In this document: piece after piece, positions 3,539 through 64,000 of the stretch | Numbering within the stretch: position 1 is the stretch's first letter | Layout: each line of letters starts with the position of its first letter | IMG/VR virus record: IMGVR_UViG_3300037484_001941 | Location: 3,171 to 67,170 of that record | DNA length: 64,000 nt | DNA from: a virus | Taxonomy: Duplodnaviria; Caudoviricetes | Reading direction: 5' to 3' (one strand) | The notes under the pieces: model-generated | Database searches by the model: none | Told to the model about the DNA's origin: nothing | The model's input: the letters and a program-made list of their open reading frames with translations, nothing else | Made by a program: the position numbers and the translations under genes

Positions 3539-3739
3539 TTATTTTTGGAAAAATTCTATCTCTCTGTCAATATTGAGGATACATCTCTCAGCTAATCTCT
3601 TCAATCTGCCTCTTCGATCTCCTAGGCGGTTGAGTTCCACTACGTCTCCTGTGGCTACGTCCAGGGCGAAGCTTACCTGGTCTTGTTCCATTGCTATTGC
3701 TATCATTAGACTTCTTATCTGGCTCTCCAGGCTCTTCAT
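3539..3739 (-). CDS. hypothetical protein (66 aa)
   Basis: GGAGGT five nt before the ATG at 3739; mostly overlaps the 3' end of the methyltransferase ORF. Confidence 0.55.
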   Translation of the reverse strand: MKSLESQIRSLMIAIAMEQDQVSFALDVATGDVVELNRLGDRRGRLKRLAERCILNIDREIEFFQK

Positions 3740-40100: not shown

Positions 40101-40829
40101 GATCATTACAATACTAACTATTCTGTAGACCCCGCTACATCTACAAACGAAATTGTAGTTAGCGGAACATATATAGCAGAAACTTTTACTAGCTCAGCAA
40201 AGGTTAGAAAAGTGATAGGCTGGAAATCTATTGTTCAGCAGAGTGGCGGTAGCTGGCAATACCTTACTGATGCTTCTGTATGGCAAAATGCTTCGAGTAA
40301 TGATGTTAAGGCGGCTTTACAACAAGCTTTTACTGTGAGTGGAAATAGAATGAATGGTGCCGCCCTGGAGAGTATATACCCCGCAGAGTACACTATGGCT
40401 AGCGGGTATACTTCTGGGGACTCCCTGGATTTTGGCGTAGGTTTTTATTCTCCATCGAGCCCTCTTCCAGAGTTAAGTAGATATGAGGTTATTTATTCCG
40501 CCGGGTCCAATAATTTAACACTTTTCACCGAGGCTTGGAGTGCATCACAAAATGACCCCACAGCTACAAAGTGTTTAATCAAGACAACTTATACGGGAAG
40601 TATTACGTTGGATATGGATCTGACTGTGTGGGTAAGTATTGATGGCGGGGTTAATTATGAGCAGATTTCTGGTTTATCCCTGCTTAGGAGCGATGGTAAC
40701 GAGCACTATATTGCTGGCTCTAAGATTAATATAACTCCCCGTGGTTCTAACCAAGTAAAATTGAAGATTACCACACATAACTCGAAAGAAATCAGGATCA
40801 ATTCTGTTGGTATGGCTGTGGGGTATTAA
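37116..40829 (+). CDS. Kelch-repeat (beta-propeller) virion protein, 1237 aa
   Basis: Many xxYD...FGG...W.Y repeats flanked by a duplicated VDKG.G.VG.PC domain. Confidence 0.85.
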   Translation: MAIAKFTGGPPGPKGDTGPTADRDINSMIMLSWIAQPIAKGLDLYTNNFSTNKGVDSSSTAIYNSAGFYEPPQARDDYLFNYDFDSTDKVVRVDNKGSIAWWYQDNGDYGHFEGVTLTVTSGGVAVDKGGGKVGLPCVGQSLATGNSIEVRGTTYYNGTNTVDATSSADEVVITSAYNAETFGNTATIHQRIGVGAGLDNTVVQPSMSVEFYDGNPLSILVASGSVYQSARLASAKPSARVSGIYEVSCNGTSVYPSYAYSTAASGWRQVFNEVPNTRGWTSMVYDPVSKDLWAFGGYKNDTAARTNEMWRYSTASGQWFYVITNAPPAAREGHTMVYDPVNAQFLLFGGYTGSAYLQDLYKFNPLNSQWTSLSPTGGPPGLRNAHAAGYSSVSGTMLIYGGYNGSARLNDVWEYNIGTNVWKQIVPTLNGMTGRSDTQYCYQTVSGALVIHGGWIAAETGETWKFDYYKNEFRKLTSSPYTARAGAAFYDETSDKMYHIGGYYNNLMNTQVPVIYSYDFKSAWGQVIPNPNNGPTLMYYFAYAYDTDKREFYTYAGHNSANYHATTALWKYNVPANTWDTIHPQALARLGGAYATKTNKFYIGFGTPLIASSYYGGQELWEYDCSNGVWTRISNYYLVNNRDGGVMYLPIAYSPNLHCLFAFGGQTTLGASANLNILRMFDLNASYTANNHNWQTLYPSGQWPTAKAEQLQAYDTDNDVLYLLGGSGSNAEFWKYDAVTNSFVRLQIPGLALTVRWATSMVYDNINKCLWAWCGYTGTAYVNELWRFDIATQLWTQIAYGGAVPPIRGNTCVVFDEVTQSLYLFSGTANGTAPITPVDFFKYDVRTNTVYKITDTWSPNARFNYAAGFNSRTGEMYVYGGVTSALKSTTDCIAYKVWDRTTTSGVVATMTSGTGFPAACNSIGHIVVDDSLVGSSDIYHALSFDSTSSFKMLSVGPEIALNDRSSVVDKGSGLVGFPCNSHPFSPGDFLRAYNTDHYNTNYSVDPATSTNEIVVSGTYIAETFTSSAKVRKVIGWKSIVQQSGGSWQYLTDASVWQNASSNDVKAALQQAFTVSGNRMNGAALESIYPAEYTMASGYTSGDSLDFGVGFYSPSSPLPELSRYEVIYSAGSNNLTLFTEAWSASQNDPTATKCLIKTTYTGSITLDMDLTVWVSIDGGVNYEQISGLSLLRSDGNEHYIAGSKINITPRGSNQVKLKITTHNSKEIRINSVGMAVGY

Positions 40830-43360
40830 TGGCTATACTACAAGATGTTGCAATAGGTGGAGTAAAAGGCAGTATAGGAGATATGGGTTCGGCTAGTTCC
40901 GGGACAGTATTTTCTATTGCTATGTCCACTTGGACGCTCAATATTGATAAACTCCAATTTGATGATATTTGCTGCAATAATTTTATAGCCGGATCTGGTA
41001 TAGATCCTGCTTCAACGGTTTATTATCATCCCGCGGGCTTCGTTACCAGTCCATCCACGGGGTCTGGTATCTCATATCAGACCAGTGTGGATAATCCTTT
41101 TACCACTACAACTTTAGTAGATGAGTTTAGTTTTCCTAATGTGTCCGGTTCATTGAGGCCTCCCGGCCTGGAGAATGCGGCTGCAGCCTACTCTAGTCAA
41201 GACAACGCTATGTATATTTTTGGTGGCTATGACGAAAACCAACTCTGTTCTGATCTATGGAAGTTTGAGTGTGACTCCTGTCAGTGGACAAAACTTTCTC
41301 CACCCGCCAGCCCCGCAGCAAGGCATTCTCACTCCATGGTTTATAATTCAATTAGTGGCAGTCTCGTTGTGTTCGGAGGAACTGTTGCATCTGGCTCCGA
41401 GGGAGATTTGTGGTCCTACTCTATAGCTGATAATGTATGGATGCAAATACCCAGAACAGGAGATGGCCCCTATGACAGGACGGAGCATACATCCGCTTAT
41501 GATTCAAGTGCTAATCAAGTATTTGTATTTAGAGGTAGGGGCGACTCTGGATCATTTTTTAGTGAATTGTTTAGGTATAATTTTTTTGATAACACTTGGA
41601 GGCGTGCAGACTCTTCAACTGGTTCACACTGCAGAACCAGTTTAATTTATGATGCTGAAGAGAACGAGTTATTAGTTATTGCTGGATACAACTCCACTAG
41701 AAACATTGTCTCTACTATTTACAGTTATGGTATATACACTTATGCTTGGGCTCAGCAAACATCAGCATGGCCTTATTCACGTTACAACCATTCAACTGTT
41801 TTTGATCCATTTTCTCGTAATCTCCTAGTCTTCGGTGGTTATACTGATGGAGATCAGGCGATCTATGGCGTGTCTGTCTATAATATAGATACAGGAGCTA
41901 CTGCCGATACCCCTACCAACTACCCAGACCTCTGTAGAGTGGGGCATTGTGCTATATTTAGTACTAAGGATAGCTCAATGTATGTATATGGTGGCCGTGC
42001 AGACGCGCGTAGCCTCATCTCTTCTCAGATGATCAAGTACACTCATTTACAGACAACTTACGCTGAAGGTATCAATGTTCGTTATTCCGAACGGTTTTTA
42101 ACCAAGACTTGGGCACATCTAGACTCAATCAAAATGGATTCTGTTAGTAAGGCAGAATCTCGTGTGTATAACGCTGTTAGTTTCGACAATGGCAATGTGT
42201 GGAAAATATATCATCCTGTAGATAAGTGGGTTGCTATTGTACAAAACTCGGGGAGCACCTGGCAATACCGTAATGACGGAGGCGGCTGGACCAATTCCCC
42301 TATTAACACGCTAGATAACGCTTTGGAGAAAGCCTTCTCTATTAGCATAAATCAGTGGGCAAGAGACATAGTTAGTGAGTGGAACGAGAAAGACCAAAGT
42401 AGTATCCCTCTATTGAATACTAACAACTATTCTTTGGGGGCTTATGTAGCGTCTGCTTCGTCTCAATATAATGCTGATTGTAATGCTTACCGTGCGTTTC
42501 AGGGGTATGTTAATCTGGGAGCAGATGCTTCTTATTGGATGGCTACCCCTATAAATGGACAGTGGCTTCAGATAGACCTGGGAGATAAACCTATATGGCC
42601 TAGGGAATGGAGAATTAGAGCTCCATGGTATAGTGTAGGAACGGGCGCGCGGTGCCCTAAGCGATTCAAGATAACAGCGTCTAATGATCTGGTGCAGTGG
42701 GATGATATAGTTACTACCTTTTCTGGGGCAGACATGCCTAATCCTACAGGAGATAAATTTACGGCTTGGTATCCTACCACTGCTACTGGTATATATCGTT
42801 ACATCAGACTAACTACTTACAGTGCTCAGATTGATGTAACCTATGTTGGTATTAAAAAATTAGATTTCAAATCGTCATGGGATATAAACTCCTTAGCAAG
42901 AGAGCATTGGGAGTCTACCGGCGGTTTTGTTTCAGGAGCTACCTCCTCTGTTCAGATAGCATTAGGGTTTTTCACAAAAGGCAGTATTCCGACGGTCAAT
43001 AGCGTTACACCAACCTATGTGACGGTGGTACAGCCCAACACAGAGCTGATTACAGACTCTTGGTTAGCCTCAGCTAATAATCCGTCAAAGGCCCAATGCG
43101 TAATAAAATGTAAGCTGGTTGATTCGATTATTTTGAACACAGATCTTACAGTATACGTCAGTATGGACGATGGGGTCAATTACGAACAAGTTACTGACTT
43201 ACAGATAGTTTCTACGGTTAACGGATTTACATATATTATGGGAAGTAAGCCTGGGCTAGAAGCTAGAGATTCTAACATTATGAGAGTTAAGATCGTAATA
43301 TCAAATTTCAAAATGGTACAAATTTATGGAACATGTTTAGGAGTAGACTACCAGTATTAA
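40829..43360 (+). CDS. Kelch-repeat virion protein with F5/8 (discoidin)-like insert, 843 aa
   Basis: Kelch repeats, then ASASSQY...AYRAF...QWLQIDLG discoidin pattern; C-terminus similar to the previous gene. Confidence 0.85.
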   Translation: MAILQDVAIGGVKGSIGDMGSASSGTVFSIAMSTWTLNIDKLQFDDICCNNFIAGSGIDPASTVYYHPAGFVTSPSTGSGISYQTSVDNPFTTTTLVDEFSFPNVSGSLRPPGLENAAAAYSSQDNAMYIFGGYDENQLCSDLWKFECDSCQWTKLSPPASPAARHSHSMVYNSISGSLVVFGGTVASGSEGDLWSYSIADNVWMQIPRTGDGPYDRTEHTSAYDSSANQVFVFRGRGDSGSFFSELFRYNFFDNTWRRADSSTGSHCRTSLIYDAEENELLVIAGYNSTRNIVSTIYSYGIYTYAWAQQTSAWPYSRYNHSTVFDPFSRNLLVFGGYTDGDQAIYGVSVYNIDTGATADTPTNYPDLCRVGHCAIFSTKDSSMYVYGGRADARSLISSQMIKYTHLQTTYAEGINVRYSERFLTKTWAHLDSIKMDSVSKAESRVYNAVSFDNGNVWKIYHPVDKWVAIVQNSGSTWQYRNDGGGWTNSPINTLDNALEKAFSISINQWARDIVSEWNEKDQSSIPLLNTNNYSLGAYVASASSQYNADCNAYRAFQGYVNLGADASYWMATPINGQWLQIDLGDKPIWPREWRIRAPWYSVGTGARCPKRFKITASNDLVQWDDIVTTFSGADMPNPTGDKFTAWYPTTATGIYRYIRLTTYSAQIDVTYVGIKKLDFKSSWDINSLAREHWESTGGFVSGATSSVQIALGFFTKGSIPTVNSVTPTYVTVVQPNTELITDSWLASANNPSKAQCVIKCKLVDSIILNTDLTVYVSMDDGVNYEQVTDLQIVSTVNGFTYIMGSKPGLEARDSNIMRVKIVISNFKMVQIYGTCLGVDYQY

Positions 43361-46802: not shown

Positions 46803-47402
46803 ATGAAAAAGGCACTGTTGGGCATACTGCTGGGGCTGTCCATATTTTTGGTAGCTCATGCTAGTCAGATCCCCAATGACCCTATTCCTAACCCAGCAAA
46901 GATTCAGTTTAAGACCTGTGAGGAGAGGATCCTGTATAGGTTAAATTTCTATTCAGACCTCTTAGTGAAGTACAGGATACCGTATGTGTGGGGAGGTTTC
47001 TGGGGGCTGTTCGGGGTGGATTGTAGCGGATACATGTACTGGATTTGCCACATGGCGGGACTCCCAGTTAAAAGGGTGAACTCCCTGCGTATGTGGTTAG
47101 ACCATGGGGCGTGGCCGGGGGAACGAGTTTTGGTTAAATTTGATGCCCATGACCGGGCACAGTTCCCTGATCTCTTGTTTTGGACTTATGACCCAAAGAG
47201 ACCCAAGGGACATACAGCTTTGGTGATAATAAACGCTGAGGACAAGAAGGGACATAGGACTATACTATTTCGAGAGGCGTCTTTTAGTCAGAAGATAGTT
47301 AAAGAGACAGAGATGAAGCAGGGGGATTACAGGTGGGTAAGATTAGAGGGAGTTTTGGTAATGGATTTGACCCCTGGGTTTAAGTGTGGTCTCGGAGGAT
47401 AA
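46803..47402 (+). CDS. NlpC/P60 peptidoglycan hydrolase (putative endolysin) with N-terminal signal
   Basis: PYVWGG...GVDCSGY catalytic Cys, GHTAL His, hydrophobic N-terminus. Confidence 0.8.
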   Translation: MKKALLGILLGLSIFLVAHASQIPNDPIPNPAKIQFKTCEERILYRLNFYSDLLVKYRIPYVWGGFWGLFGVDCSGYMYWICHMAGLPVKRVNSLRMWLDHGAWPGERVLVKFDAHDRAQFPDLLFWTYDPKRPKGHTALVIINAEDKKGHRTILFREASFSQKIVKETEMKQGDYRWVRLEGVLVMDLTPGFKCGLGG

Positions 47403-48046: not shown

Positions 48047-48496
48047 ATGCCCCGAGAGAAGAAGAACCAGGATAGACATGTACAGTTGTTAGATGAACTG
48101 GAGGACATAGTATCCTTACTGGCACAGCAGACGGACAGTAAGACGACTAATCTTCAGGTCCATATAGAACAACAACGAAAGCAGCTAGAGGAGCAGGACA
48201 GCCGCCGCTGGAAATGGTTTGTTATCATAGCTAGCTCTATTCTTTTGGCAATAGGGATAATTACTTTCGAGATGTGGGAGCGACAATACGATAGAATTAA
48301 CTCTGTTGAAAAGCAAGTTGTCAAGATGGACACGTCGATAGACGTGCTGAAAGAGAACAGTTTGAAAAAGTACGAGTTTAGAGAGCAACTCGAAGACTAC
48401 AAAAAGAAGGCCGCAGAGGACAGGGAGAAAAAAGACAAAGAGATGGAAGACAGGATAAAATTGTTAGAAGACCTTGCGCTGCCGAGGAAAAAATAA
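48047..48496 (+). CDS. single-pass membrane coiled-coil protein
   Basis: One TM segment (WFVIIASSILLAIGII) between coiled coils. Confidence 0.65.
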   Translation: MPREKKNQDRHVQLLDELEDIVSLLAQQTDSKTTNLQVHIEQQRKQLEEQDSRRWKWFVIIASSILLAIGIITFEMWERQYDRINSVEKQVVKMDTSIDVLKENSLKKYEFREQLEDYKKKAAEDREKKDKEMEDRIKLLEDLALPRKK

Positions 48497-48882
48497 TGGA
48501 TATACTCATCGTCGAAAATGATATAGTTGTGACTAAAATGTGGTCCAAGAAATTGTCCAAAGACCACGAAGTGCGCATAGCAGAATCAGTTATGCAGGCC
48601 AAAGAAGAAATAGAGAAAAAGATGCCAGACTTAGTGATATTAGACCTACGACTTAACGGGCCTACTAATTCGGGGCTTAACATTTATGATTTTATCCGGG
48701 AGGAATTGCAGGAAAATATTCCTATCATTTTTATAACCGGACTTGCCTACAGTGTAGACCTGTTTCAGAGAGCGCAGCAGTTGAGCAGTATGGATGACTT
48801 GTCTGGCATAACTACAAAGTTAGTGGAGAAACCTATAAAGATAAACGAGCTGTCTAGTCTGGTTAATACACTAACAGCTTAA
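48496..48882 (+). CDS. single-domain response regulator (CheY-like)
   Basis: ILIVEND, PDLVILD (phospho-acceptor Asp), FITG and EKP all present. Confidence 0.9.
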   Translation: MDILIVENDIVVTKMWSKKLSKDHEVRIAESVMQAKEEIEKKMPDLVILDLRLNGPTNSGLNIYDFIREELQENIPIIFITGLAYSVDLFQRAQQLSSMDDLSGITTKLVEKPIKINELSSLVNTLTA

Positions 48883-48900
48883 TGAGGAACGGGCCGCATA

Positions 48901-51900
48901 ATGGATAAAGCAGTCGGGGGATTCAAATTCAAGTGGCGCTGGGTAGGCTTGCTAGTTGTGCTCGCGGCTCTTACTCTGACCGGCGGGTATAATTACTATC
49001 TATCTGAAACTCATCGAATAATCAACGAAAAACAAAAAGAACTTGTAACCATTGGTGAACTAAAAGTTAAACAAATAGCCCGGTGGAGGGAAGAGCGTGT
49101 TCTTGACGCCGAGCCCGTTGTTAAAAGCTTGTACTTTAGGGAAGTTTTCTTTGCGTGGTACAATGATCGGAAGGACCGGGACGCTGAGGCTAAATTAATA
49201 GACCGACTGTCTCTATTTAGAGAAATAGAAAGGTACCACGACGCGTTCATCGTGGATACTGCTGGTAATGTATTAATAGCTAGTAGCGGAAGAAATGGCC
49301 CGGTGGGCCCCGAGACATTAAGGTGTGTCCAGACAGTCGTGGAATCTAAAAAGCCCAAACTCGGCAACTTGCATTTATCCACCTACGACAAAATACCGGT
49401 CATAGACACAATGGCCCCTATCTTAAACAGTAATGGAGAGCTTAAAGGCATTCTACTGTTAAGAAGCTCCCCAAGAACCTATTTATACCCCATGTTAGAG
49501 ACCTGGCCCGTTCCTAGTAAGTCTTCCGAGGCCCTAATAGCACGCAAGCAAGGTAATGATGTGGTTTTTTTGAGCCCGCGTAAGATAGAAGAAGATGCTC
49601 TCTTTTCAAGGGTATCCATAGAAGCTGATCTACCATCGGCTAAGGCCGTTACCGGAACAACAGGGATTTATGTTGGTCCCGACTACCGCGGCCGGCAAGT
49701 TATGTCCTATTTGGCGGCTGTAAAAGATTCTCCATGGTTTCTTGTTTGTAAGGTAGACCTGGAAGAAATTTATAAAGAAACCAAGTATAAGAGAACTGTC
49801 ATTGTCATGTTTTCTCTGACAGTAGCATTCTTGCTGCTGTTGTCTATTGCGTTTACTTACCGCAATCAACAGGCTTCGGCCTTGAATAAGCTTTATCTGT
49901 CCGAAATAAAAGAAAAAGAAATTAGAGAAAAGTTCGAGTTTATGTTCAATTTTGTTCCCATGGGGATCATGCACTTTGATTCCACCGGGGCAATTACTGC
50001 TTGCAATGATCAGTTTGTTCAGATAATAGGGTCTAGCAGAGAGCAGTTAATAGGGCTGAATACGATTAAGGACATAGCAGATGAAAAGATGATAGAGGCT
50101 ATCTCCCTCTGTCTCAATGGAGAGGTGGGTTTTTATGAGGGCTACTACACGTCTGTTACTGCCAATAAGACAACCCCAGTAAGATGTGAATTTGCTCCCA
50201 TTAAGGTGGGTGGTAAGGTGCAGGGGGGGATAGGTTTAATTAAGGATATCACGTACAGGAAGAGGGCTGAACAAGCCATTCAAGTTAGCGAGTTGCGTTA
50301 CAGGAAACTGTTTGAATGTGCCAGGGATGGTATCCTAATACTCGATTATGACACAGGCAAAATTTTAGATGCTAATCCATATCTCATGGAGATTTTAGGT
50401 TACTCTCATTCTGAGTTCTTAAACAAGTATTTGTGGGAAGTCAGTCCGTTTAAAGACGCCGCTTTAAACAAAGATTCTTTTGAAAACTTGAAAGCCACAG
50501 GTTATACGCGTTACGAAGACTTGCCTATAGAAACAAAGGACGGTAGGAAAATAGACGTAGAATTTGTGAGTAACTGCTATCCAGCAAATGGGCAAACCTA
50601 TATTCAGTGTAACATTAGAGACACTACAGAAAGGGTTATTCTTCAGAGACGACAGGACTTCTTCATTGATACCCTGAAAATGCTGAATAGGCCTTTTGCA
50701 GGCCCAAAAACAATAGAGGATCTTCTCGTACTCATACAGTCTTATACTGGTATAGAGGCCATAGCCATAAGACTCCAAGAAGGGGAGGACTATCCTTATT
50801 TTGTTTACCGGGGTTTTGATAAACAGTTCATCAAGATGGAAAGTTCTCTGTGTGCTCGTGATTCTAATAGGTGTGTAATACGAGATCCTGAGGGCAAACC
50901 CGTGTTGGAGTGCATGTGCGGGTGTGTAATCCGGGGACAAACTGATCCCGCCTATCCTTTCTTTACCGATAGGGGAAGTTTCTGGACTAATAGCACTAGC
51001 ACGTTAATAAGCGGCAGCTTGCAGGTGAAATCCAGGAACACCTGTAACGCCCAGGGTTACGAATCGTTAGCTATCATACCACTTTCTACTGGACCCGAAA
51101 TTATAGGATCTTTACAGTTAAACGACAGGAGCCCGGGCGTGTTCAACGATTCTTTGATAAGGTTCATGGAAGAGATAGCCCTTATTATAGGTGTGGCGGT
51201 AAGAAGAACCTGGCAGGAGGATCGTATAAAGCTTTTGGAGGTAGCTAAGACTAAAGATCAGCTGCAGTCTTCACGGCTTTTGAATTCCGGTATAGCGCAT
51301 GAATTGCGGACCCCCATGCAGGCATTACTTAACTGCTTAGAATTAATACGGGAAGAGGTAGGAGCAACTTGTGATTACAGCTGCGAGGCCTCTGAGAAAG
51401 CAGATTGTCCAATGAAAAAGCCTGTTTGTGACAGTAAGCAAAGTATATTGGAGCTAGTCGATGACGGCCTGGAAAGAACCGAGTATTCTGTTAAGGTATT
51501 GAATTCATTGTCGGAGTACTCAAAGATAGCTAGTGCAGACGAGGTGCATTTAATTAACGTTGTTCCAGAACTGAAGACTATAATGAGGACACTTATGTTC
51601 ACCGACCAATTTAAGTGTATGAAAGAAGATAATTTTATCTTAACTAATAAAGACGAAGAGGAAGGGTGCTTTGTGTCAATAAATAGAGTTGACTTCTCTC
51701 AGCTCATAACAAACCTATGCAGAAATTCCAGGGAAGCCATTGTAAGCGAAGAGCCAAGAATAGAGATAGTAGTATCCCGTGCGGTTGAGGGGATTCAAGT
51801 TGTTATTATTGACAATGGAAAAGGAATAGATAAGGCATTAGGAAATAAGATATTTGAACCGTATTTTTCTACAAAGGAAAATCCGGACGGATATAACCAA

Positions 51901-52020
51901 GGACTCGGATTGGCAATGGTGAGAGACATCATTGCAGCCTACGGAGGGACAATAAAATATACAAGTCAGCCGGGGCACACGGAGTTCACAGTCACATTGC
52001 CATGTGAAAGTATAGAATAG
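48901..52020 (+). CDS. membrane sensor histidine kinase (Cache-like, 2 PAS, GAF, HisKA, HATPase)
   Basis: Two TM segments, two PAS-PAC blocks, Cys-rich GAF, H-box IAHELRTP, N-box NLCRNSREA, G1 DNGKGI, F-box FEPYFSTK, G2 GLGLA. Confidence 0.93.
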   Translation: MDKAVGGFKFKWRWVGLLVVLAALTLTGGYNYYLSETHRIINEKQKELVTIGELKVKQIARWREERVLDAEPVVKSLYFREVFFAWYNDRKDRDAEAKLIDRLSLFREIERYHDAFIVDTAGNVLIASSGRNGPVGPETLRCVQTVVESKKPKLGNLHLSTYDKIPVIDTMAPILNSNGELKGILLLRSSPRTYLYPMLETWPVPSKSSEALIARKQGNDVVFLSPRKIEEDALFSRVSIEADLPSAKAVTGTTGIYVGPDYRGRQVMSYLAAVKDSPWFLVCKVDLEEIYKETKYKRTVIVMFSLTVAFLLLLSIAFTYRNQQASALNKLYLSEIKEKEIREKFEFMFNFVPMGIMHFDSTGAITACNDQFVQIIGSSREQLIGLNTIKDIADEKMIEAISLCLNGEVGFYEGYYTSVTANKTTPVRCEFAPIKVGGKVQGGIGLIKDITYRKRAEQAIQVSELRYRKLFECARDGILILDYDTGKILDANPYLMEILGYSHSEFLNKYLWEVSPFKDAALNKDSFENLKATGYTRYEDLPIETKDGRKIDVEFVSNCYPANGQTYIQCNIRDTTERVILQRRQDFFIDTLKMLNRPFAGPKTIEDLLVLIQSYTGIEAIAIRLQEGEDYPYFVYRGFDKQFIKMESSLCARDSNRCVIRDPEGKPVLECMCGCVIRGQTDPAYPFFTDRGSFWTNSTSTLISGSLQVKSRNTCNAQGYESLAIIPLSTGPEIIGSLQLNDRSPGVFNDSLIRFMEEIALIIGVAVRRTWQEDRIKLLEVAKTKDQLQSSRLLNSGIAHELRTPMQALLNCLELIREEVGATCDYSCEASEKADCPMKKPVCDSKQSILELVDDGLERTEYSVKVLNSLSEYSKIASADEVHLINVVPELKTIMRTLMFTDQFKCMKEDNFILTNKDEEEGCFVSINRVDFSQLITNLCRNSREAIVSEEPRIEIVVSRAVEGIQVVIIDNGKGIDKALGNKIFEPYFSTKENPDGYNQGLGLAMVRDIIAAYGGTIKYTSQPGHTEFTVTLPCESIE

Positions 52021-54776: not shown

Positions 54777-56441
54777 ATGGCAGCAAAACGTGATCGTATT
54801 CTATATGCGAGCCAGAGTGTCAGGGTCAATGGACGACTAGTCTATCGAGTCCAGACTCTCGGTTCCAACTCTACCTTCACTTCGGAAGACGTGTTCGAGT
54901 TGGGTCATCTAGACAAGGTGGATGTTGTTGACGACGTTCCTGCTGTAGCAGTAGCGCTTGACACCAATGATTTTGGTGGAGTCAACGGCATGGCCATTTT
55001 GGCTGGTATGAACCCAGATCGTATGAAGGGAGCCCCCACTTCTAGTGGCGCTTATCTACGTACGAATGCTGTGTGCACAGGTTCCGGGTCCAGGTACTAT
55101 CACGGTTTGGCTCTGGCTGATTATACTATGTGTGACGGTGTGAAGATAGTAGCACCGGTGCAGAAGGAAGCCTCTTTGGGTACCTCCGACGATGAAATTC
55201 AGATGACGCTCTACATGGACAAAGTCTATGTAAACAGCATAACTTTGACTTACAACGTTGGAGCTAACGCCACAGAGAACTACGCAGCTGAAACTGACAA
55301 CAAACGTTGGTTGGTTAACGGTGCTAAGTTCGTTACTACTGAAGAGTGGGTGATAGCTTCTCCTTCAAACAGCCAGGCGCTGAACGTCGGACTCGCCACT
55401 GGTAAGAGCATACCAGAGCTTTCCGATTGTAAGAGGGCCTTCCTCTCCTTTACCACCAACGGTAAAGAAGGTGTGGAAGTCCGAATCAAGACCGAGAGAC
55501 AGGGAACTATTTACCCTGTAGCCGCTGCAGCCGCAGCCGGTACTTTCGGCTATAATGACGGGACTAGAACCCTAACCCTACCTACAGACGCAGCTACGCT
55601 GTGGACTGAGGCCATCAAAGTTATCGCTGTGTACGCGGCTGATGCTTTTGGTGATACCGGCAACAATGCTGGTGGCGGGTTGGATTCTACTGATGCCTTC
55701 AATAAGTACTTTGAAGCCATCGACAGCACCCAATATCCAGAGGATGTTGGAGCTGTGCGACAGGGCCAGGTCGAAGTCTACTTGCTAGACCCGGATGACC
55801 CACCAGCCAATGATGACTGGGCAATGACCCTGCGTATGCAGACTGTTACCATTACGGCAACACCGACACGTACACCATTGAATGAGCTGGGCCATCAGAG
55901 ACCTTATGCTCGTCCGATGAACTTCCCAGTGGCTCTCACTACCAACACCACGACCACAGCTAACGACCTAGAGTTGTTCGCTAAGATCGCTGGTTTAACT
56001 CCTGCCAACTACGAAGACGGCGGAAGCGGTACTGACATAGCGCTGAACCATCTAATGTCCAAGGAAAACCTTTACCTAGTTGTTAAGGTATTCCAGCAGA
56101 CTGACGAGGAAGCAGGTGGAACCGGTCTTAACCGTAAGGCTATGGTTGCCAATATGTTGGGAGACGAATACTATGACTGGGACGGCGCTGGCACCTACAC
56201 TGATGTCGGTACCTGTGCAAGCCCAGACAGAGAGCGTCCTCTCAAAACCGTTATCGTTCCTAAGCTGAAAATCACGGCTGAGAACTTTAACAACGCAGCC
56301 GGTGGAGGCGGCGGAGGCGGAGCTGGGGCAACTCAGGAATTCAACTTCCGTTCATCCAACGAACTCTATGTTGTAAAGGGCGACGTCCATATTCAGGATG
56401 TGTTCTGCATGGAGAGAAACACTGCAGCTGACCAGTGGTAA
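54777..56441 (+). CDS. major tail (tube) protein with apparent tandem duplication
   Basis: VQTL...ELGH and MQTV...ELGH segments; strong SD; followed by a terminator and chaperone-like genes. Confidence 0.7.
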   Translation: MAAKRDRILYASQSVRVNGRLVYRVQTLGSNSTFTSEDVFELGHLDKVDVVDDVPAVAVALDTNDFGGVNGMAILAGMNPDRMKGAPTSSGAYLRTNAVCTGSGSRYYHGLALADYTMCDGVKIVAPVQKEASLGTSDDEIQMTLYMDKVYVNSITLTYNVGANATENYAAETDNKRWLVNGAKFVTTEEWVIASPSNSQALNVGLATGKSIPELSDCKRAFLSFTTNGKEGVEVRIKTERQGTIYPVAAAAAAGTFGYNDGTRTLTLPTDAATLWTEAIKVIAVYAADAFGDTGNNAGGGLDSTDAFNKYFEAIDSTQYPEDVGAVRQGQVEVYLLDPDDPPANDDWAMTLRMQTVTITATPTRTPLNELGHQRPYARPMNFPVALTTNTTTTANDLELFAKIAGLTPANYEDGGSGTDIALNHLMSKENLYLVVKVFQQTDEEAGGTGLNRKAMVANMLGDEYYDWDGAGTYTDVGTCASPDRERPLKTVIVPKLKITAENFNNAAGGGGGGGAGATQEFNFRSSNELYVVKGDVHIQDVFCMERNTAADQW

Positions 56442-56472
56442 TAATCACTGATCCAGATATAATGTAAAGGTG

Positions 56473-56505
56473 GGCGGGGTCGGTACATCCTTCCCCGCCT
56501 TTTTT
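56473..56505 (+). terminator. intrinsic terminator after the tail tube gene
   Basis: GGCGGGG/CCCCGCC stem followed by six T. Confidence 0.75.
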
Positions 56506-56528
56506 AAAGGTACAGGAGGTAAAGGACA

Positions 56529-56816
56529 ATGGCATCAGAGGAAACGCAAGTCCAATCCAGAAGCAGAGCTAAGTTTTTGAAAAAGATAAAGGAAGTGCAC
56601 GATAGGGCTTCTGGGCAAATTCTAGACCTCGTTGACGTTTCTCTTGGAGACGAGGGTAAATTCAAAGCTATCAGATCAAAGATTCTACGGGTCATTAATG
56701 ACGCGGGTCGTAACTTCGATAAGGAGTTAGAGCGCCATTATTTGATGGAATATGTATCTACTTCCGAGGACGTAATCGTGTTTGGAAGCGGGAATAGCGC
56801 GACTAACAATAGCTAA
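56529..56816 (+). CDS. hypothetical protein
   Basis: AGGAGGT SD; 95 aa. Confidence 0.7.
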   Translation: MASEETQVQSRSRAKFLKKIKEVHDRASGQILDLVDVSLGDEGKFKAIRSKILRVINDAGRNFDKELERHYLMEYVSTSEDVIVFGSGNSATNNS

Positions 56817-56833
56817 GGTGGAGGAACAAGGCA

Positions 56834-57547
56834 ATGGCCGATAAGAAGACAGAAGAGCAGGAGCTCAAAGACATTTTTGGTGATAAGAGATATTTCATCA
56901 ATGACGGACCAGGTGGGGACGGGAAAAAGTATTACCTAGATAGTGCCGACGTGGACGAAGTAAGAAACGCAGACTGGCATTATTCAAAGACATACAACGA
57001 GGCCCTGCTTGCTGGAGTGACTACTGCCGCACAGATGGCAGACATTCTGGAAGAGCGTAGCATAACTGGTAAGTCCTATGAGGAAAAGCGCCAGACCCTT
57101 ATTAAGGATCTTGACGACTCCGTAGAGAAGCTCACCACAGCTAGCGGTCTTGACGATAAGAAAGCCCTTGCAACAAGGGTAGAAGAGTTACGAAACCAGT
57201 TGTTCAGGCATAATCAGAGGGCCGCAAGCCCAATGAGTAATACCTGTGAGCAGTTGGCAGAGGACGCCAGGGTGGAATATTTAACTTCCGCCATGATCAA
57301 GGATGACCAGGGCAACAGGGTGTGGGACTCTTATGGTTCATATAAGACTACCAATAGACCTCAACTTGCCATGCGATCCCGATATGAGATCATGCTGGCC
57401 TTACAGGGGTTAGATAGTGACTTTTTGTCCAAGACTCCGGAGGCACTGGCCCGAGAAGAGATCAAACAACTCGAATCAGGGGAGTCTAAAACCGATGCGG
57501 CTGACAAGCCTACTGGTAAGAAAGACAAGAAACCTGCCAAAAACTAA
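56834..57547 (+). CDS. putative tail assembly chaperone 1
   Basis: Helical; between the tube gene and the giant gene. Positional inference. Confidence 0.55.
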   Translation: MADKKTEEQELKDIFGDKRYFINDGPGGDGKKYYLDSADVDEVRNADWHYSKTYNEALLAGVTTAAQMADILEERSITGKSYEEKRQTLIKDLDDSVEKLTTASGLDDKKALATRVEELRNQLFRHNQRAASPMSNTCEQLAEDARVEYLTSAMIKDDQGNRVWDSYGSYKTTNRPQLAMRSRYEIMLALQGLDSDFLSKTPEALAREEIKQLESGESKTDAADKPTGKKDKKPAKN

Positions 57548-57615
57548 GTCAATAAAAAGGAGAGGGCGGGCGGCCTTAGGTTGCCCGTATCCTCCTTGTA
57601 TTAGGAGGGGATAAA

Positions 57616-58725
57616 ATGGCTATTGACTGGTCCTTAGAAGAACTACAATTAGCACTAGATGAAATAGTTACCGGGGAGAAGCTTGTGGAAATCCACGATA
57701 AGAGCGGAGAGTCTATCTTTGTTCTTTTCAAGTACCCGTCTAAATCAGACATGCGAAATTCTGACATGAAGATGAAGCAGAAAATACAGCATGCTGTTAG
57801 AGAGAAGTTTCTTACCGAGCAGCAGATGTTGGACATCATCCGCCAGAGACGTATTTGGACGGAAGACGACGACGAGCTCATCGAGGATTTTAAAGAGAAA
57901 ATAGCAAAATGGAAAGATAAGCTCACTAACCCAGACCTGACCGAGAGAACAAGACAGACAGTTAAAGAGGCCATTCAAGGTTTTGAAAATAAGGTGTTCG
58001 AGGCTGAATACAAGAAAGAGATAATGCTGGTGAATACAGCGGAAAGAAAGGGCCGCCAAGAAAAGTTTGAGTATTTAGCTTGGAGCTCAAGTTATGACCC
58101 AGAAACCGGAGAAAGGCTCTGGAATAATTATCTAACTTACTGTAGATTGATGGATGCTCCATTAAAGAACAATCTATTAGGTGAGTTCATTAAGTATCTG
58201 GGCGGAAGGAAGACCGAGGAAATACGATATATTGCTAGAAGTAACCTGTGGAGGATCTGTTACGTCATAGCACAAAAAACTAACACACCACTCTTCCCTA
58301 GAGCAGTAGTTGATTTGACACCTGACCAAACTAACCTAGCTTGGTGGGCTGGTTATTACGACGGTATATACCAGATGATGCCAGAAGATATACCAGATGA
58401 CTACACTATAGAAAATGATGAAGCACTCGATGCTTACATGGAAGACCTGCACAAGGAACGGTCTCAAGAAAGACAGGACGCTAAGAGAGATAAGAAGAAC
58501 CCGTTTGGGGCTAAGTCTGCAAGGAATATGAAGGAACAGCTGATTATGCGCACTAACCCGGATTACTTGGATAATGAGTATGACAAGATTCCGGGAGACA
58601 AAGCATTGCATCAAGGAACTGACTTGTCCTTGAAAGACGAAGCGGGTGCCGGTACTAAGGCTGCTTTGCAAAGAAGCAAGCAAATAGTAGGCAGCAAACG
58701 GTTCAACAAAGAAAATCAAACTTAG
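57616..58725 (+). CDS. putative tail assembly chaperone 2
   Basis: Helical, with YDGIYQMMPEDIPDDYTIENDEALDAY segment; immediately before the giant gene. Confidence 0.55.
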   Translation: MAIDWSLEELQLALDEIVTGEKLVEIHDKSGESIFVLFKYPSKSDMRNSDMKMKQKIQHAVREKFLTEQQMLDIIRQRRIWTEDDDELIEDFKEKIAKWKDKLTNPDLTERTRQTVKEAIQGFENKVFEAEYKKEIMLVNTAERKGRQEKFEYLAWSSSYDPETGERLWNNYLTYCRLMDAPLKNNLLGEFIKYLGGRKTEEIRYIARSNLWRICYVIAQKTNTPLFPRAVVDLTPDQTNLAWWAGYYDGIYQMMPEDIPDDYTIENDEALDAYMEDLHKERSQERQDAKRDKKNPFGAKSARNMKEQLIMRTNPDYLDNEYDKIPGDKALHQGTDLSLKDEAGAGTKAALQRSKQIVGSKRFNKENQT

Positions 58726-58744: not shown

Positions 58745-61700
58745 ATGGCGGAAGAATATACTTTTAACATCAGACTAAAAGTAAACGAAGAAACCACCAA
58801 GTCCAGCCCTGATGCTGGAAAGGGTAGTGGTGAATTCGAGCGCTTGCTAAACAAAGCTACTGATGTTTTAAGGGACATCAGCTCTTTGGATATCAGGTCA
58901 CTTAAAGGGGCCATGGGCTCTCGCGGCGGGTCTAAGGATTATGCCAGTGACAGGATCAAGGCTGAAAAGAGTGCTATTGAGGAGCAGATAGCCTTGTTGC
59001 GTGGGCTGAGAGCTTTTGCTCCGTCTATAAGCACTTCAGACTGGTCAGCTGGGAAGGGGAACGCCGACCCTACTAAGAAATTTGAGAAAGCTTACGAGAA
59101 GCCACAAGAAAAAGCTGAACTACAGGCAGAGCTCCGCAGGGAGCTTGACAGACAATTCCACTCTATAAATCAAACCACAGATACAATCAAGAGAAGTCTG
59201 GAGCAGCAGAGGCAGACTTTCCTAGACTACCATAATGAGATAAAGGCTCTGAGAGCTCCATCTACAACTACTACTTTTGCAGGGGAGCGAATAACTGTCC
59301 AACCAGAGCGTTCATTGCAGCAGATGGTTGCTCCTAACATATTCACCAGACAACTGGAGTTGCAGATCGAGAAACTAGCTAAAGTCTCTAAAGACCAGCT
59401 AGCCAAAGAGATGCTTAGAATTAAGTCGTTCATGGACGACACCTACGGAGAGATAGACACTGCATTGGGTCAGGTGGGCTACGAGGCTCACAATAGGGCC
59501 AAGCAGGAAGTCAGTAAGGTAAAAGAGCAGCTGGATAAAATAGTTGCTTCTGGAGATCCTCAGAAAATAAGCCAAGAGACTGAGGCAGCCCTTAAATCTG
59601 GACAGCTGACAAAACAAATTAGCGACATGAGGCGATCTATTGAGGACGCCTCGGCTGTGTTCTCCAAGGAGCTAGGGGCCGAAATGGACAAGGCCCGCAA
59701 GTCTTTTGAACAATTCCAAAGAAATATAGTTTTTACATTCCAGAGACCTCAGTTCTTTGACCCGGCTGGCCCGGAGTTCCGAGACATAGAATCTATGAGT
59801 TCCCGAAAGGGTATGGGTATGCCTATAGGTGGTAGATACGCTGGTGCCCCTAGAATAACTTTTGATGAGAAGGGCATGGCTAAGTACCAGATAGTAGACG
59901 TTAAAGCTCTGGCACGAGAGACTGCTAATATAATGCAAGCCTCAGGACTGAAGCAAGCCTTGGGAACCGACTTCAGCGCCTCTCTACAGAAAGCTATAGA
60001 CAGATATTTAGACGAACATCAGATCTCCAGAAGAATTGAAACCTTGATGTCCTTCTCCGTGAATGACCTGAAGAGGATACAACTTGACCTGATTAATTTA
60101 GCACAGAAAGAATTGAGATCCAAGGTGGGGGACCAAGAGGGACAACGTCGGCTAGACGTATTCCAGAAATATATAGAGGGCATGACAAATCAGCAGCTTT
60201 CTGTTCCATCTATGTATAAGAGCTCAAGGGGAGCTGGTATAATCAGAGACCCAGAGCGCGGGGAATATCTCACCCTTAGTAGATACGTAGAAGCACGACC
60301 TGGTATAAATGAACTAGAAGATAAGTTTATGCGTCCAGTAATGGATGCTATTAGAAAACTAAACTTTAGGCCACAAGAACAGCCCGAGTGGATGAGAGAG
60401 CTTGGGAAGGTAGTAAAAGACTTCTGGGTTAGAACCAGACCAGCCGAAGGCCACGGAGTAGGTACCGGAATGGAGGCCGCCTCAAGAGAGACATTACACA
60501 GGGTTAAGAACTCTTTTGACCGGGTAGCAGATTTCCTTAAGCAGACTCGCGGTCCGAGAGCAGGTCGGGCGATCTCAGAGGTGCAGGAGTTAAAGAAGCA
60601 GTTCTTTGATGAATACCACCGAGCCTTAAGGGAGTCCATAAGAACTACAGAAGAGAAGATCCTGAAGGAAGAAGTAGTCAGTGGGAGAAGAAAGCTCCCC
60701 GAGGCGTTGGAGTCTAAGTATAGAGAACAGTTGAAACCCTTAGTTGGCAAGGGCGCTCGCTATGAAATGATCCCTGAGCCTGTAGTGGGTTTCTTGAGAC
60801 AGGAGAGTGTAAAGGCCGCCCGCAAGATAGAGGCTATTCCTGTAGACAAGTTAGAATCTCGTATGCAACAAGTTTCCCAGCAGGAGAAACAAATTATAGG
60901 GAAGTCTGACTATGCCAATCGAGCGTGGCAAAGGGCCTTGGAAGAGTTTTCTAAGTATCGACAGGTTGATTTTTATAATCTATTGAACAGAGCAGCATCC
61001 TTTTCTAAAGAGGGAGCAAACGAGCTGGAGAGGCTGCGTAATAGTCTGTCTGCAGCAGGCCGCCTGAGCAATGAGTCCTATTTTCAAGAACTTTTACAGC
61101 AACAATTTAAGAAAGTATTTGACCCCATCAAAGAAAAGGTTCCGGAAGAACACGAGGCTATGCAAAAGCATGAAGTCTATGGTAAGTCTAAAGTTGTAAC
61201 TATACAGCCTAAGATACCTGGTATGGACGCTGGCCCAAGCTCTTACGGAGTGCCAGTCGATCTGCAGGCCAAAAAGAGATTCATTGTACAGCGTAACCTG
61301 GAGATGGAGGATCTCTTTGAGAAAGAAATGCTCCGCGGCATCGACAAGGCAATGAAAAAGCTTGGTCCAAATATCGAAAGACTAGCTACTGTTGGTTTGA
61401 ACGAAGCATCTGCTGCCGGTGACAAAGACTGGGGGGAACAGTTCGTAGAAAAATTCTTCAAAGGAAAAATGTTACAGCCTTTCGCTTCTTATGACCCAAG
61501 GCAGACTGAGGCTTTCGGACGTTCTATAAACCCAGCTCGCCCCACTGGAGCAGCTTGGGATTCCCTCGCTGGTTTGGAGTTCAACGCTGTACGCTCTAGA
61601 AAAGCACAAGATCTTATTAAGACAGGCCAGTTTGGTACTTACGGAACTGGCCTCAATTTGACTACAGTTTTGAAAGACGTCTCCCAGGGGTTTGAGGATC

Positions 61701-64000
61701 TTTACGAGATAGGCCGCAGGGCTCAAGAGCTCGCAACCTTCAAATACAAAAAAGAGATAGTTGCTAATCTAAAGTCTGCCCCTGAGTTACTCAAAGGTAA
61801 AACCATTAAATATTTAGAAGACCTGGGAAGCGAGATCTTCGGAGCCCCAGTCTCTATTAAGGGTATGGCTGATGAAACCTTTGTTACTGACATAGTGAAA
61901 AGGTGGGCGCAGTCCCCTAAAGGTCCAGTCGAAGAGAACATAGTGGAAATGCTAGATAGTTACTTGGGGCACGAAGCTCGTAAGTTATCTTCAGGGCAGG
62001 TTATGAAAGGCGTAGGGGCCACTATTTTTGGGCGGATGAAGGGCGGTGGCAAAGACCTTGAAGAGGAAGTTGCAGCGAAAGCCAAGAAGGGTATGTTTCC
62101 TAAGGTGAAGTTTCAAGACATAGGGGAGTTAATAGATGTACCTAAAGATTTTGAGCAACTATTTACTGAACTGATTAAGGCTAGAAAAGACCTGAGCCCA
62201 GAAAAAGCCCAGCAGGCACTAGACATGATTAAGGGAACCAGAAATATGGTTATGATGTCTAGCCAGCATCTAAAAGAATTTAAGATGTCACCACTGGAAT
62301 ATGGCACCGGAAAAGTGATGGGACAGGAAGGCTCCCTTAGCTTAGAGCAGAGAAAGAAGGCCCTGGGAGATCTGTTGGGGATCAACTTTTCGAGTGGGTC
62401 TTCTATGAAGGGCATAACTGCAGACATGGAAAAGGTTCGAGACGAATACCGCAAGACAGTGGGCAGTGAGCTTACTAAAGAGGCCCCCGTAGATCTACGA
62501 ATCTCCGCTTCTGGAATAGGAAAGGGATCTCGTATGATTGGTGGTAACTTGGCTGAGTTGATTACTAACAACATTATTGGAAACCTACGCTCTAAGGCCC
62601 TTAAGGGCGAAACCCTAATGGAACAAATTCAAAGGGAACCACTAGCCAGAGTTATGGTGGAAGATACAGCCTCCGGCATTGAAGCTCGTAAGCTTGCTCA
62701 ACAGTATAAGGAAGCTCTAAATCTCAAGGGCAAATATGGAGAGGAGTTTGTCTTTTCTCAGGGCGACCAAATGGAGAAGGCCATAGCTGGCACAATACAC
62801 ATGATGGTGATGAAGGAGCCTAAGGGGTGGGTCCCTAAGGGGGCTGAGCACCTTGTTAAAGGGGCTTCTAAGATGACTATTGACCCACACGCCTGGTTTG
62901 GCCTACAGAAACTGTTTGAGCCAGGCGGGGCTATGATGCGTGAATTTACCACCAGATCCTTTCCGGAGGCGAGGGAGGCAGGGTCTTTTATAGATGCTCT
63001 ACGGTCATTTGCCAAACTAAGAGAGGATGAAATTCGTCAGGATAAAACCAGACGAGTAATAGGGGTTGAGGAGCTTACTAAAGAGGGGTCCTCCGGTTAC
63101 GTTGCCCCACTAAAGAGAAAAGCCACTGTCGCTGATTTGGGTGACACTATATTTGACGCCTTCAAGTTTGGTAAAGCCTTGACTTTGCAACTCCCTGAGC
63201 CTTCAGATGAGATGGCAGAAACAATAGCCAAAGACGTACAAGAGAAGATCAAGAAGGGCGAACAGGTAATGCCCGTTAAGAAGGCCATAGAAATTCCGGA
63301 GATAACCGCACGCCAGTATGTCACATCAGAGACAGGAGAGGTTTTGCCCTCCACAGTCTCCAGGTATCTATCCGAATTGGTAGAAGCCACAAGAAGATAC
63401 TATAAGCTACAGGGCCCCACTGAGAGCCCAGAGATAGCAGAGATGAAAAGGACTTTCATTAATGCAATAGTAGGAGATTTTTATAACAAGTTCCACTCTG
63501 TACGAGAGGTTGATGTTAAGAAAGAGCTACTAGGGAAACTGGAAGACCAAGTTCTGTCCCTCGTCGGCCAGCAGAAAATGCCTCAATTCTCTGCTAAGTC
63601 CTCCCTTATAACTGACCCCAATGACCCGCATAAAGCATGGTTTCCGACCCTCTATTCTAGGTTGGGCGAAGATCAGATTAAGGGCCTAGAAGAGGGCATG
63701 AAAAGCGGGATAACTATAAAGGAAGCTTACGAGAAACATATCAAACCCAGCGTGGATGACTCTGTAACAAGCCAAAACTACTTAGCTAGATTACTGAGGG
63801 ACCTAGTTGCTGGTCCAGTTATTTATTCTAAGGATGTCAAAAAGATAGGGGAGACTGTAACCAAAGATATTTCCTCTGGATTAGAGAAGGGCTTTGATAT
63901 AAAAGACCTAGTGTCTGATAAGTCTATGGATAGTTTATTAAAAGACTTCAGACAGTATGAAGTAACTAGGGACGAGCGAGGCAAAGTTTCCGGATATAAG
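58745..64000 (+). CDS. giant virion protein (>=1752 aa, 3' end outside the window) at the tape-measure position, containing RNA polymerase beta/beta-prime-like motifs
   Basis: ATG at 58745. Stretches translated by hand (including all of 61200-64000) are open, and the track has no + strand call here, as expected for an unterminated frame. N-terminal helical/coiled-coil region, then GLN...GFED, GKVMG...MKG, PVD...SRM and GTIHMMVM motifs. Confidence 0.85.
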   Translation, partial: MAEEYTFNIRLKVNEETTKSSPDAGKGSGEFERLLNKATDVLRDISSLDIRSLKGAMGSRGGSKDYASDRIKAEKSAIEEQIALLRGLRAFAPSISTSDWSAGKGNADPTKKFEKAYEKPQEKAELQAELRRELDRQFHSINQTTDTIKRSLEQQRQTFLDYHNEIKALRAPSTTTTFAGERITVQPERSLQQMVAPNIFTRQLELQIEKLAKVSKDQLAKEMLRIKSFMDDTYGEIDTALGQVGYEAHNRAKQEVSKVKEQLDKIVASGDPQKISQETEAALKSGQLTKQISDMRRSIEDASAVFSKELGAEMDKARKSFEQFQRNIVFTFQRPQFFDPAGPEFRDIESMSSRKGMGMPIGGRYAGAPRITFDEKGMAKYQIVDVKALARETANIMQASGLKQALGTDFSASLQKAIDRYLDEHQISRRIETLMSFSVNDLKRIQLDLINLAQKELRSKVGDQEGQRRLDVFQKYIEGMTNQQLSVPSMYKSSRGAGIIRDPERGEYLTLSRYVEARPGINELEDKFMRPVMDAIRKLNFRPQEQPEWMRELGKVVKDFWVRTRPAEGHGVGTGMEAASRETLHRVKNSFDRVADFLKQTRGPRAGRAISEVQELKKQFFDEYHRALRESIRTTEEKILKEEVVSGRRKLPEALESKYREQLKPLVGKGARYEMIPEPVVGFLRQESVKAARKIEAIPVDKLESRMQQVSQQEKQIIGKSDYANRAWQRALEEFSKYRQVDFYNLLNRAASFSKEGANELERLRNSLSAAGRLSNESYFQELLQQQFKKVFDPIKEKVPEEHEAMQKHEVYGKSKVVTIQPKIPGMDAGPSSYGVPVDLQAKKRFIVQRNLEMEDLFEKEMLRGIDKAMKKLGPNIERLATVGLNEASAAGDKDWGEQFVEKFFKGKMLQPFASYDPRQTEAFGRSINPARPTGAAWDSLAGLEFNAVRSRKAQDLIKTGQFGTYGTGLNLTTVLKDVSQGFEDLYEIGRRAQELATFKYKKEIVANLKSAPELLKGKTIKYLEDLGSEIFGAPVSIKGMADETFVTDIVKRWAQSPKGPVEENIVEMLDSYLGHEARKLSSGQVMKGVGATIFGRMKGGGKDLEEEVAAKAKKGMFPKVKFQDIGELIDVPKDFEQLFTELIKARKDLSPEKAQQALDMIKGTRNMVMMSSQHLKEFKMSPLEYGTGKVMGQEGSLSLEQRKKALGDLLGINFSSGSSMKGITADMEKVRDEYRKTVGSELTKEAPVDLRISASGIGKGSRMIGGNLAELITNNIIGNLRSKALKGETLMEQIQREPLARVMVEDTASGIEARKLAQQYKEALNLKGKYGEEFVFSQGDQMEKAIAGTIHMMVMKEPKGWVPKGAEHLVKGASKMTIDPHAWFGLQKLFEPGGAMMREFTTRSFPEAREAGSFIDALRSFAKLREDEIRQDKTRRVIGVEELTKEGSSGYVAPLKRKATVADLGDTIFDAFKFGKALTLQLPEPSDEMAETIAKDVQEKIKKGEQVMPVKKAIEIPEITARQYVTSETGEVLPSTVSRYLSELVEATRRYYKLQGPTESPEIAEMKRTFINAIVGDFYNKFHSVREVDVKKELLGKLEDQVLSLVGQQKMPQFSAKSSLITDPNDPHKAWFPTLYSRLGEDQIKGLEEGMKSGITIKEAYEKHIKPSVDDSVTSQNYLARLLRDLVAGPVIYSKDVKKIGETVTKDISSGLEKGFDIKDLVSDKSMDSLLKDFRQYEVTRDERGKVSGYK

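Follow-up and report, generated by a model that had tools for sequence, protein, structure and literature searches.

The window analysed here, a 64,000-nucleotide stretch of tailed-phage DNA (Duplodnaviria; Caudoviricetes), covers bases 3171-67170 of the 67,170-base IMG/VR record IMGVR_UViG_3300037484_001941, which CheckV estimates to be 34% complete. At the end of the window, behind four genes of a tail-like module, lies the beginning of a giant open reading frame (ORF), whose translated part is referred to as P0001. A first-pass annotation had read its product as a protein in tape-measure position that contains a fused two-barrel RNA polymerase (RNAP), the beta-like part preceding the beta-prime-like part, with a catalytic DxDGD motif expected past position 64000. 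We describe this ORF, the relatives of its product and the extent to which they point to a polymerase that is delivered with the phage tail.

A truncated giant reading frame and its relatives

The ORF is real: none of its 1,751 codons is a stop, and it stays open to the contig end. Because the end of the window is also the end of the contig, the frame cannot be extended in its own genome. Its start is supported by two relatives, whose proteins likewise open with MAEEYTFNI. All eight peptides that the first-pass annotation had quoted from the frame were recovered with the coordinates and residue numbers it had assigned, and the E. coli beta and beta-prime peptides with which it had compared them are genuine. 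Identity to the relative P0011, taken in blocks of 50 residues, is 32-70% over residues 1-750 and rises to 74-84% over residues 751-1000. Cysteine is absent from all 1,751 residues (58745-63997) and tryptophan accounts for 0.6% of them; the absence of cysteine fits passage through a narrow channel and proves nothing.

The window protein (P0001, 1,751 aa) gave no match to Pfam, to PHROGs or, with phmmer, to any PDB chain, and none by tblastn in the 50,697 phage genomes of INPHARED. An exact-sequence look-up of the 369-aa and 95-aa proteins encoded upstream returned no second assembly of the phage. Among sequencing runs, one DNA run from a sediment metagenome is listed with a small share (0.18), and no RNA run is listed. 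The family is very rare, with seven matches among 1.84 billion representative proteins and a handful in a set of 5.8 billion; no relatives were found in IMG/VR, among the phages of INPHARED, in any cultured phage or in GTDB genomes, and none in the search of "longer" proteins (3,066-5,000 aa). The 8.6-kb contig that encodes one relative, P0005, is binned in a metagenome-assembled genome of candidate division GN15, a weak hint to the host.

The closest relatives extend the frame well beyond the window. On the metagenome contig L005, an orthologue 82.5% identical over residues 1-1751 of the window protein is preceded by genes of 267, 555, 238 and 374 aa, as in the window, and its frame is unbroken for at least 5,522 aa, being still open where the fetched DNA ends (L005:5567-22132). 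P0011 is 57% identical, has the same N-terminus and measures at least 6,667 aa. A 138,489-base JGI contig (sample 3300075153) encodes a 374-aa protein identical to the neighbour in L005 and, behind it, a product of 11,978 aa; if the protein studied here is as long as in this 138-kb relative, the window holds the N-terminal ~15% of a protein of ~12,000 aa. Gene organization varies among the other relatives. In L003 (82% identical), the giant gene is spread over at least five frames (1, 3, 1, 2, 3; L003:4729-19216). The first of these frameshifts is absent from the window and from L005, both of which read straight through, and the frame breaks probably reflect faulty assembly and not biology. 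In L002, the polymerase part closes as its own gene of 2,236 aa, with another of 4,578 aa after it (L002:6694-16712). In L009, a distant syntenic relative, the giant protein is split over three genes.

Table 1. Coordinates of the giant ORF, its parts and the preceding genes in the window (DPBB, double-psi beta-barrel; L and P numbers as in the text).
Feature	Coordinates	Strand	Remarks
Upstream tail-module genes (554, 95, 237 and 369 aa)	54777..58725	+	Gene order kept in all relatives, the distant L009 among them
Truncated giant ORF, N-terminal 1,751 codons	58745..64000	+	Open frame, cut by the contig end
Variable N-terminal region, residues 1-750	58745..60994	+	Rich in E, K, R, Q, A and L; without cysteine; weakly conserved
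Conserved module, candidate beta-like (DPBB-B) half, residues ~836-1416	61250..62992	+	Common to P0008, P0010 and P0009
Motif G.N..T.L(K/R)x6(F/Y)ED, with E984/D985	61649..61720	+	Kept in all relatives
Motif P(V/I)D..IS..G.GK..R....E..NN..G	62486..62563	+	Resembles the beta segment around R1106
Connector toward the expected catalytic barrel, residues ~1500-1751	63243..63997	+	Contains the highly conserved block IEIPEI.AR.YVTS.TGE.LPS..SRY

Catalytic motif in the relatives and conserved module in the window

Every relative that reaches far enough carries D(F/Y)DGD with M.(A/S)(V/I)H after it. The motif reads DYDGDMLAVH at residue 1993 of the L005 orthologue and DFDGDMMSIH at residue 1990 of P0011, and D(F/Y)DGD is found at residue 1597 of P0004 (DFDGD), 768 of P0005 (DFDGD) and 509 of P0007 (DYDGD). 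About 100 residues upstream of it, NRQP(T/S)TDEFSY is invariant in the relatives. With the distant L009 protein included in the alignment, the invariant positions are NR.PT..(F)S and D.DGD....H. The counterparts in E. coli beta-prime are NRAPTLHR (424) and NADFDGDQMAVH (458-469). The expectation of a DxDGD motif past the window end has thus been borne out in the orthologues, which carry D(F/Y)DGD ~240 aa beyond that point, as measured in L005.

Four of the five segments taken as the beta-prime-like barrel (DPBB-A) matched the Pfam family RNA_pol_Rpb1_2 (PF00623), with a best E of 8.9e-6, and no other Pfam family had matches in more than two of the eleven scanned segments. When the family was aligned with E. 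coli rpoC using hhalign, the best local match fell at the DFDGD site of the latter (P 0.0078); with gp96 of Thermus phage P23-45, the best local match was also at DFDGD, over 13 columns (P 0.019). Compared with the cellular beta-prime domain, the catalytic barrel of the relatives carries two insertions. By these sequence comparisons, the conclusion that the protein family carries a beta-prime-type catalytic barrel downstream of the part contained in the window is supported.

The window itself contains a conserved module that we consider a candidate for the beta-like half. Three distant relatives at ~25% identity, P0008, P0010 and P0009, share exactly the region of residues 836-1416 (E 2e-6 to 5e-4 when the whole library was searched), and in a pairwise comparison residues 1138-1824 of P0008 pair with residues 836-1416 of the orthologue at E 6e-24. 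The first-pass annotation had matched five segments of the window protein to RNAP. Segments 1 (E984/D985) and 3 (R1263) keep their key residues in relatives at only ~25% identity. In the distant relatives the G.N...FED motif of segment 1 reads FEDQIVVSGRLA, which is nearer to E. coli beta than the version in the window, and around segment 3, nine sequences all share P1248, D1250, G1257, K1260, R1263 and E1271. The peaks of family conservation hold segments 1, 3, 4 and 5. Segment 2, which had supplied the two lysines of beta, lies in a trough: K1190 is kept in the close family only, and the assignment of K1222 fails on conservation: the 82%-identical orthologue has Q at this position, and two others have an insertion there instead. 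The connector (~1500-1751), in which segment 5 lies, is no more than a putative equivalent of beta-prime residues 242-273.

Tail module, known polymerases and the proposed role

The four genes that precede the giant ORF have no Pfam, PHROG or PDB match. The 554-aa protein has one weak language-model neighbour, a cluster with Phage_tube_2 in 25% of its members, a weak lead by which it may possibly be the tail tube. L009 shares this module: its 530-aa protein matches the 554-aa protein at E 2e-116 and its 334-aa protein the 369-aa protein at E 1e-50, and its 173-, 82-, 314- and 198-aa proteins give matches as well. The 237-aa protein (56834-57547) corresponds to two adjacent ORFs of 173 and 76 aa in L009 (L009:8194-8949), a layout that recalls the two-ORF frameshift arrangement of tail assembly chaperones. 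Of the tail tube and two chaperones proposed for this region by the first-pass annotation, what holds is a conserved module; no annotation could be attached to it apart from the weak tube lead.

A 12-mer, WATTARCTAACY, occurs in five copies in the window, all of them on the + strand and all intergenic (7338, 27169, 43418, 46272 and 54605). The expected number is 0.1 and none of 100 shuffles reached five, an enrichment that is post hoc, the pattern having been derived from the same sites. The copy before the 554-aa gene, which heads the operon of the giant ORF, is kept as AATTAACTAACTAAG in two 82% relatives (L005:1413, L003:574). The 12-mer is a candidate phage-specific late promoter.

The giant protein is divided among the three genes of L009 as follows. 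The product of the first, P0008, is complete at 1,840 aa and consists of the N-terminal region and the beta-like module only. The second encodes 311 aa. The third encodes 2,522 aa, carries LDFDGDAIEVH at residue 315 and aligns to the catalytic barrel of L005. This split, as far as the sequences allow it to be read, mirrors the boundary between the beta and beta-prime subunits, and the order of beta before beta-prime proposed for the window protein agrees with it, the two parts being separate genes in that order. The 2,522-aa protein also contains a genuine tape-measure protein (TMP) domain at residues 1767-2484 (PhageMin_Tail, E 8.5e-28; phrog_4211, E 1.8e-71). No other finding argues as strongly for a physical link between this lineage's polymerase and the tail ruler as the fusion of DFDGD and a TMP domain in L009.

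Further enzymatic domains are fused in the relatives, beyond the part that the window covers. The L005 protein contains an RNA ligase (~3043-3184), a LigD-type 3'-phosphoesterase (~3375-3470) and an RNase H/RVT_3 domain (~3702-3825), and L002 and L003 also carry these three domains. P0005 has two PolyA_pol-type nucleotidyltransferase heads in addition, and the precomputed Pfam list of P0011 includes PolyA_pol. Whether the polymerase is fused to the RNA ligase/LigD_N/RNase H block or separate from it varies among L002, L005, P0005 and P0011.

The first-pass annotation knew of no description of a polymerase within a TMP; such an arrangement has already been published. P23-45 gp96, a TMP of 5,002 aa, bears an active two-barrel virion RNAP at its N-terminus, with the motif 779-DFDGD-783; it is packaged and transcribes the pre-early genes, and it is as the TMP fusion that the enzyme is packaged (Chaban et al., Nat Commun 2024, PMC10770324). 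Outside DFDGD, similarity of gp96 to known RNAPs is reported to be undetectable (PMC10770324). The protein described here resembles gp96 in being a giant tail-module protein with a putative single-chain two-barrel RNAP that bears DFDGD (here via the relatives), in the order of DPBB-B before DPBB-A, in being encoded after tail genes and, in L009, in the fusion of the catalytic half to a TMP. It differs in several respects. The sequence relation found with hhalign is limited to the 13 columns at DFDGD; a phmmer search with the C-terminal part of gp96 gave no match in the relatives, and the supplementary alignments of PMC10770324 contain none of the family's motifs. The polymerase would begin after an N-terminal region of ~750-900 aa, whereas that of gp96 begins at residue 1, and DFDGD lies near residue 1990 rather than 779. 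The length is more than twice that of gp96, and the relatives add RNA ligase, 3'-phosphoesterase, RNase H and, in some, nucleotidyltransferase domains. So far, no TMP domain has been seen in the close family (first 5,522-6,667 aa). The signature of the family, NRxPT and DFDGDxMAVH, is cellular-like, whereas gp96 reads DFDGDTLVVL. New with respect to gp96 are thus the cellular-like catalytic signature, the very large size and the RNA ligase, 3'-phosphoesterase and RNase H domains fused in relatives.

[quoted passage not shown] Like the giant protein, gp66 is large and encoded beside other giant virion proteins; its motif is DFDID (DFDIDKMYVML) rather than DFDGD, and hhalign finds no similarity. 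A crAss-like affiliation was rejected, given the lack of any similarity and the different motif; the phage has no crAss-like markers. The cellular beta-prime/Rpb1 family (PF00623) is closer at the catalytic site, where NRxPT and (N/L)(A/D)DFDGDxMAVH are nearly identical to the E. coli sequences given above. Unlike cellular RNAP, the family holds its beta-like and beta-prime-like parts in one chain, and it has no match to Rpb2_6, Rpb2_7 or Rpb1_1. Because no relation to gp96 or gp66 extends beyond the aspartate loop and the signature is of the cellular type, an independent origin is indicated.

Based on these findings, we propose, with moderate confidence, that the giant ORF encodes a tail-module protein with a single-chain two-barrel RNAP that is built into the tail, ejected and used to transcribe the first phage genes. 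That the protein contains a fused two-barrel RNAP at all is very probable. The variable region of ~750 aa would be followed by the beta-like module (~836-1416) and the connector, all within the window; the catalytic barrel (NRQPT ... D(F/Y)DGDM.AVH) is expected to begin ~130 aa past the window end and its metal-binding aspartates to follow at ~240 aa. The protein would be made late, together with the tail genes. By analogy with gp96, it would most likely be built into the tail and ejected into the host ahead of, or together with, the DNA. There the polymerase core would transcribe the first genes of the entering DNA independently of the host RNAP, and the fused RNA-repair and RNase H domains may then serve to protect or process RNA.

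Several results weigh against the polymerase and tape-measure parts of this proposal. Neither the window nor its record contains the catalytic motif, the contig ending ~240 aa before its expected place, and a search of that record with the Rpb1_2 profile yielded no candidate. The match of whole P0005 to Rpb1_2, the only hit with reported bits, scored 20.4 bits, below the gathering cut-off of 25.3 bits. When the E. coli motifs were placed without gaps along the 1,751 aa, 195-476 of 500 shuffles reached the observed best; the resemblance of the window alone to RNAP is not above chance, because shuffled sequences score as well. Segments 1 and 3 stand as conserved elements of the family, and segments 4 and 5 as parts of its conservation peaks, while the likeness of all four to RNAP does not exceed that of shuffles. 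For the beta barrel that the first-pass annotation had placed at residues ~950-1400, no profile method gave a signal in residues 940-1460: six beta-like segments matched neither Rpb2_6 nor Rpb2_7 in Pfam, and Rpb2_6, Rpb2_7 and Rpb1_1 found nothing in the whole record at E<=10. With hhalign, the family profile matched neither an 81-sequence gammaproteobacterial beta profile nor E. coli beta alone. Profile searches of the PDB with A1 and A3 returned no RNAP chain, and the PDB matches of A1 stem only from the C-terminal nucleotidyltransferase and LigD_N domains of P0005. In the family, nothing corresponds convincingly to the two lysines that are conserved in beta. AlphaFold2 models of window residues 900-1751 and L005 residues 930-2129 came out poor, at a mean pLDDT of 48.5 and 48.2 and with values under 50 in the two barrel regions; the connector, residues ~1500-1751 together with ~1540-1760, was the sole confident part. 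Fold searches (Foldseek against the PDB once, VIA wide twice) gave only generic matches of the 14-3-3 and helical-bundle type, from which nothing is concluded on the fold. A beta-type DPBB at residues ~950-1400 is thus no more than plausible, with conserved motifs on one side and null profiles and poor models on the other. As for the ruler, P0001 has no TMP domain in Pfam or PHROGs, nor do the first 5,522-6,667 aa of the close relatives, in which a single hydrophobic segment was seen and nothing that is clearly a transmembrane cluster. A length ruler would not usually carry globular enzyme domains. In favour of the proposal, residues 940-1420 have TMP clusters as language-model neighbours, a lead only at scores below 0.9. 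Support for the tape-measure link that the first-pass annotation had proposed comes from the distant L009 and is indirect, and a TMP domain is not found in the part of the close family that was examined.

These observations bear on what else the protein might be. It could be a packaged and ejected, RNAP-bearing cargo protein of the internal or ejection type, comparable to N4 gp50 or the crAss-like gp66, and no tape measure, with the ruler encoded elsewhere or located only far toward the C-terminus. The TMP-free 5,522-6,667 aa of the close relatives and the several globular enzyme domains in one chain are in keeping with such cargo, as is the separate 2,236-aa gene for the RNAP part in L002, and the upstream genes, lacking Pfam and PHROG matches, do not set the tail type. 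We nevertheless judge cargo unlikely, since the DFDGD protein of the syntenic L009 itself bears a TMP domain, the giant gene follows a conserved tail-like module and the ruler could lie in the C-terminal ~5,000-6,000 aa of the full 11,978-aa product.

It is very unlikely that the enzyme is a non-virion RNAP synthesized once the cell is infected, comparable to P23-45 gp64 or the non-virion RNAP of phiKZ, with its structural neighbours being incidental. Packaging is something we infer by analogy, and the conserved 12-mer stands before this operon as before other late operons, so that the gene is probably expressed late. However, a packaged protein would be expressed late and within a structural operon, too, and an enzyme that acts only inside the cell is hard to square with the TMP fusion in L009. 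Still less can be said for the absence of any polymerase, that is, for a giant, helical protein with a structural or tape-measure role whose DFDGD and beta-like motifs arose by chance or are degenerate relics. The shuffles and the profile and fold tests of the window part would agree with this highly improbable explanation. Against it, DFDGD..H and NR.PT are invariant from 82% down to ~25% identity, Rpb1_2 was recovered by four of the five DPBB-A segments, and the gene split in L009 mirrors RNAP subunit architecture.

The proposal of a tail-built, ejected polymerase can be carried further, to a form that is possible, though we hold it doubtful as a whole: a single injected tail protein of ~12,000 aa would combine a cellular-type two-barrel RNAP with a kit for RNA repair and processing (RNA ligase, LigD-type 3'-phosphoesterase, RNase H and, in some relatives, CCA/poly(A)-type nucleotidyltransferases), would probably serve as the ruler too, and would have originated independently of the tape-measure RNAP of P23-45. 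If so, the first transcription enzyme and a counter to host RNA-cleaving defences would be delivered as one molecule, and the product would rank among the largest phage proteins. The fused ligase, phosphoesterase and RNase H domains raise the idea of injected RNA repair. If the protein does represent a second, apparently independent lineage with a first-acting RNAP built into a giant tail protein, tail-delivered transcription would therefore be a recurring strategy and not the peculiarity of one Thermus phage. The catalytic motif, being nearer to cellular RNAP than that of gp96 or gp66, bears on the origin of single-chain RNAPs from split or fused beta and beta-prime, and L009, through its natural gene fission, supplies a beta-like and a beta-prime-like partner as a defined pair. 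A tblastn search of INPHARED with the catalytic segment (E<=10) gave only a chance match, in a Gordonia phage.

Other features of the window

Within the structural region, at 48496-52020, the window encodes a response regulator and a 1,039-aa PAS/dCache histidine kinase. A corresponding pair, a 128-aa Response_reg protein and a 918-aa kinase, occupies the same place in the 138-kb relative. Two adjacent Kelch-repeat beta-propeller proteins of 1,237 and 843 aa (37116-43360; Pfam E 7e-67 and 1e-53) are possible receptor-binding proteins; upstream of this pair lies a 1,306-aa protein with a weak match to a tail-fibre PHROG. A 199-aa peptidase of the NlpC/P60/CHAP type (46803-47402; Pfam E 1.2e-5) is probably the endolysin.

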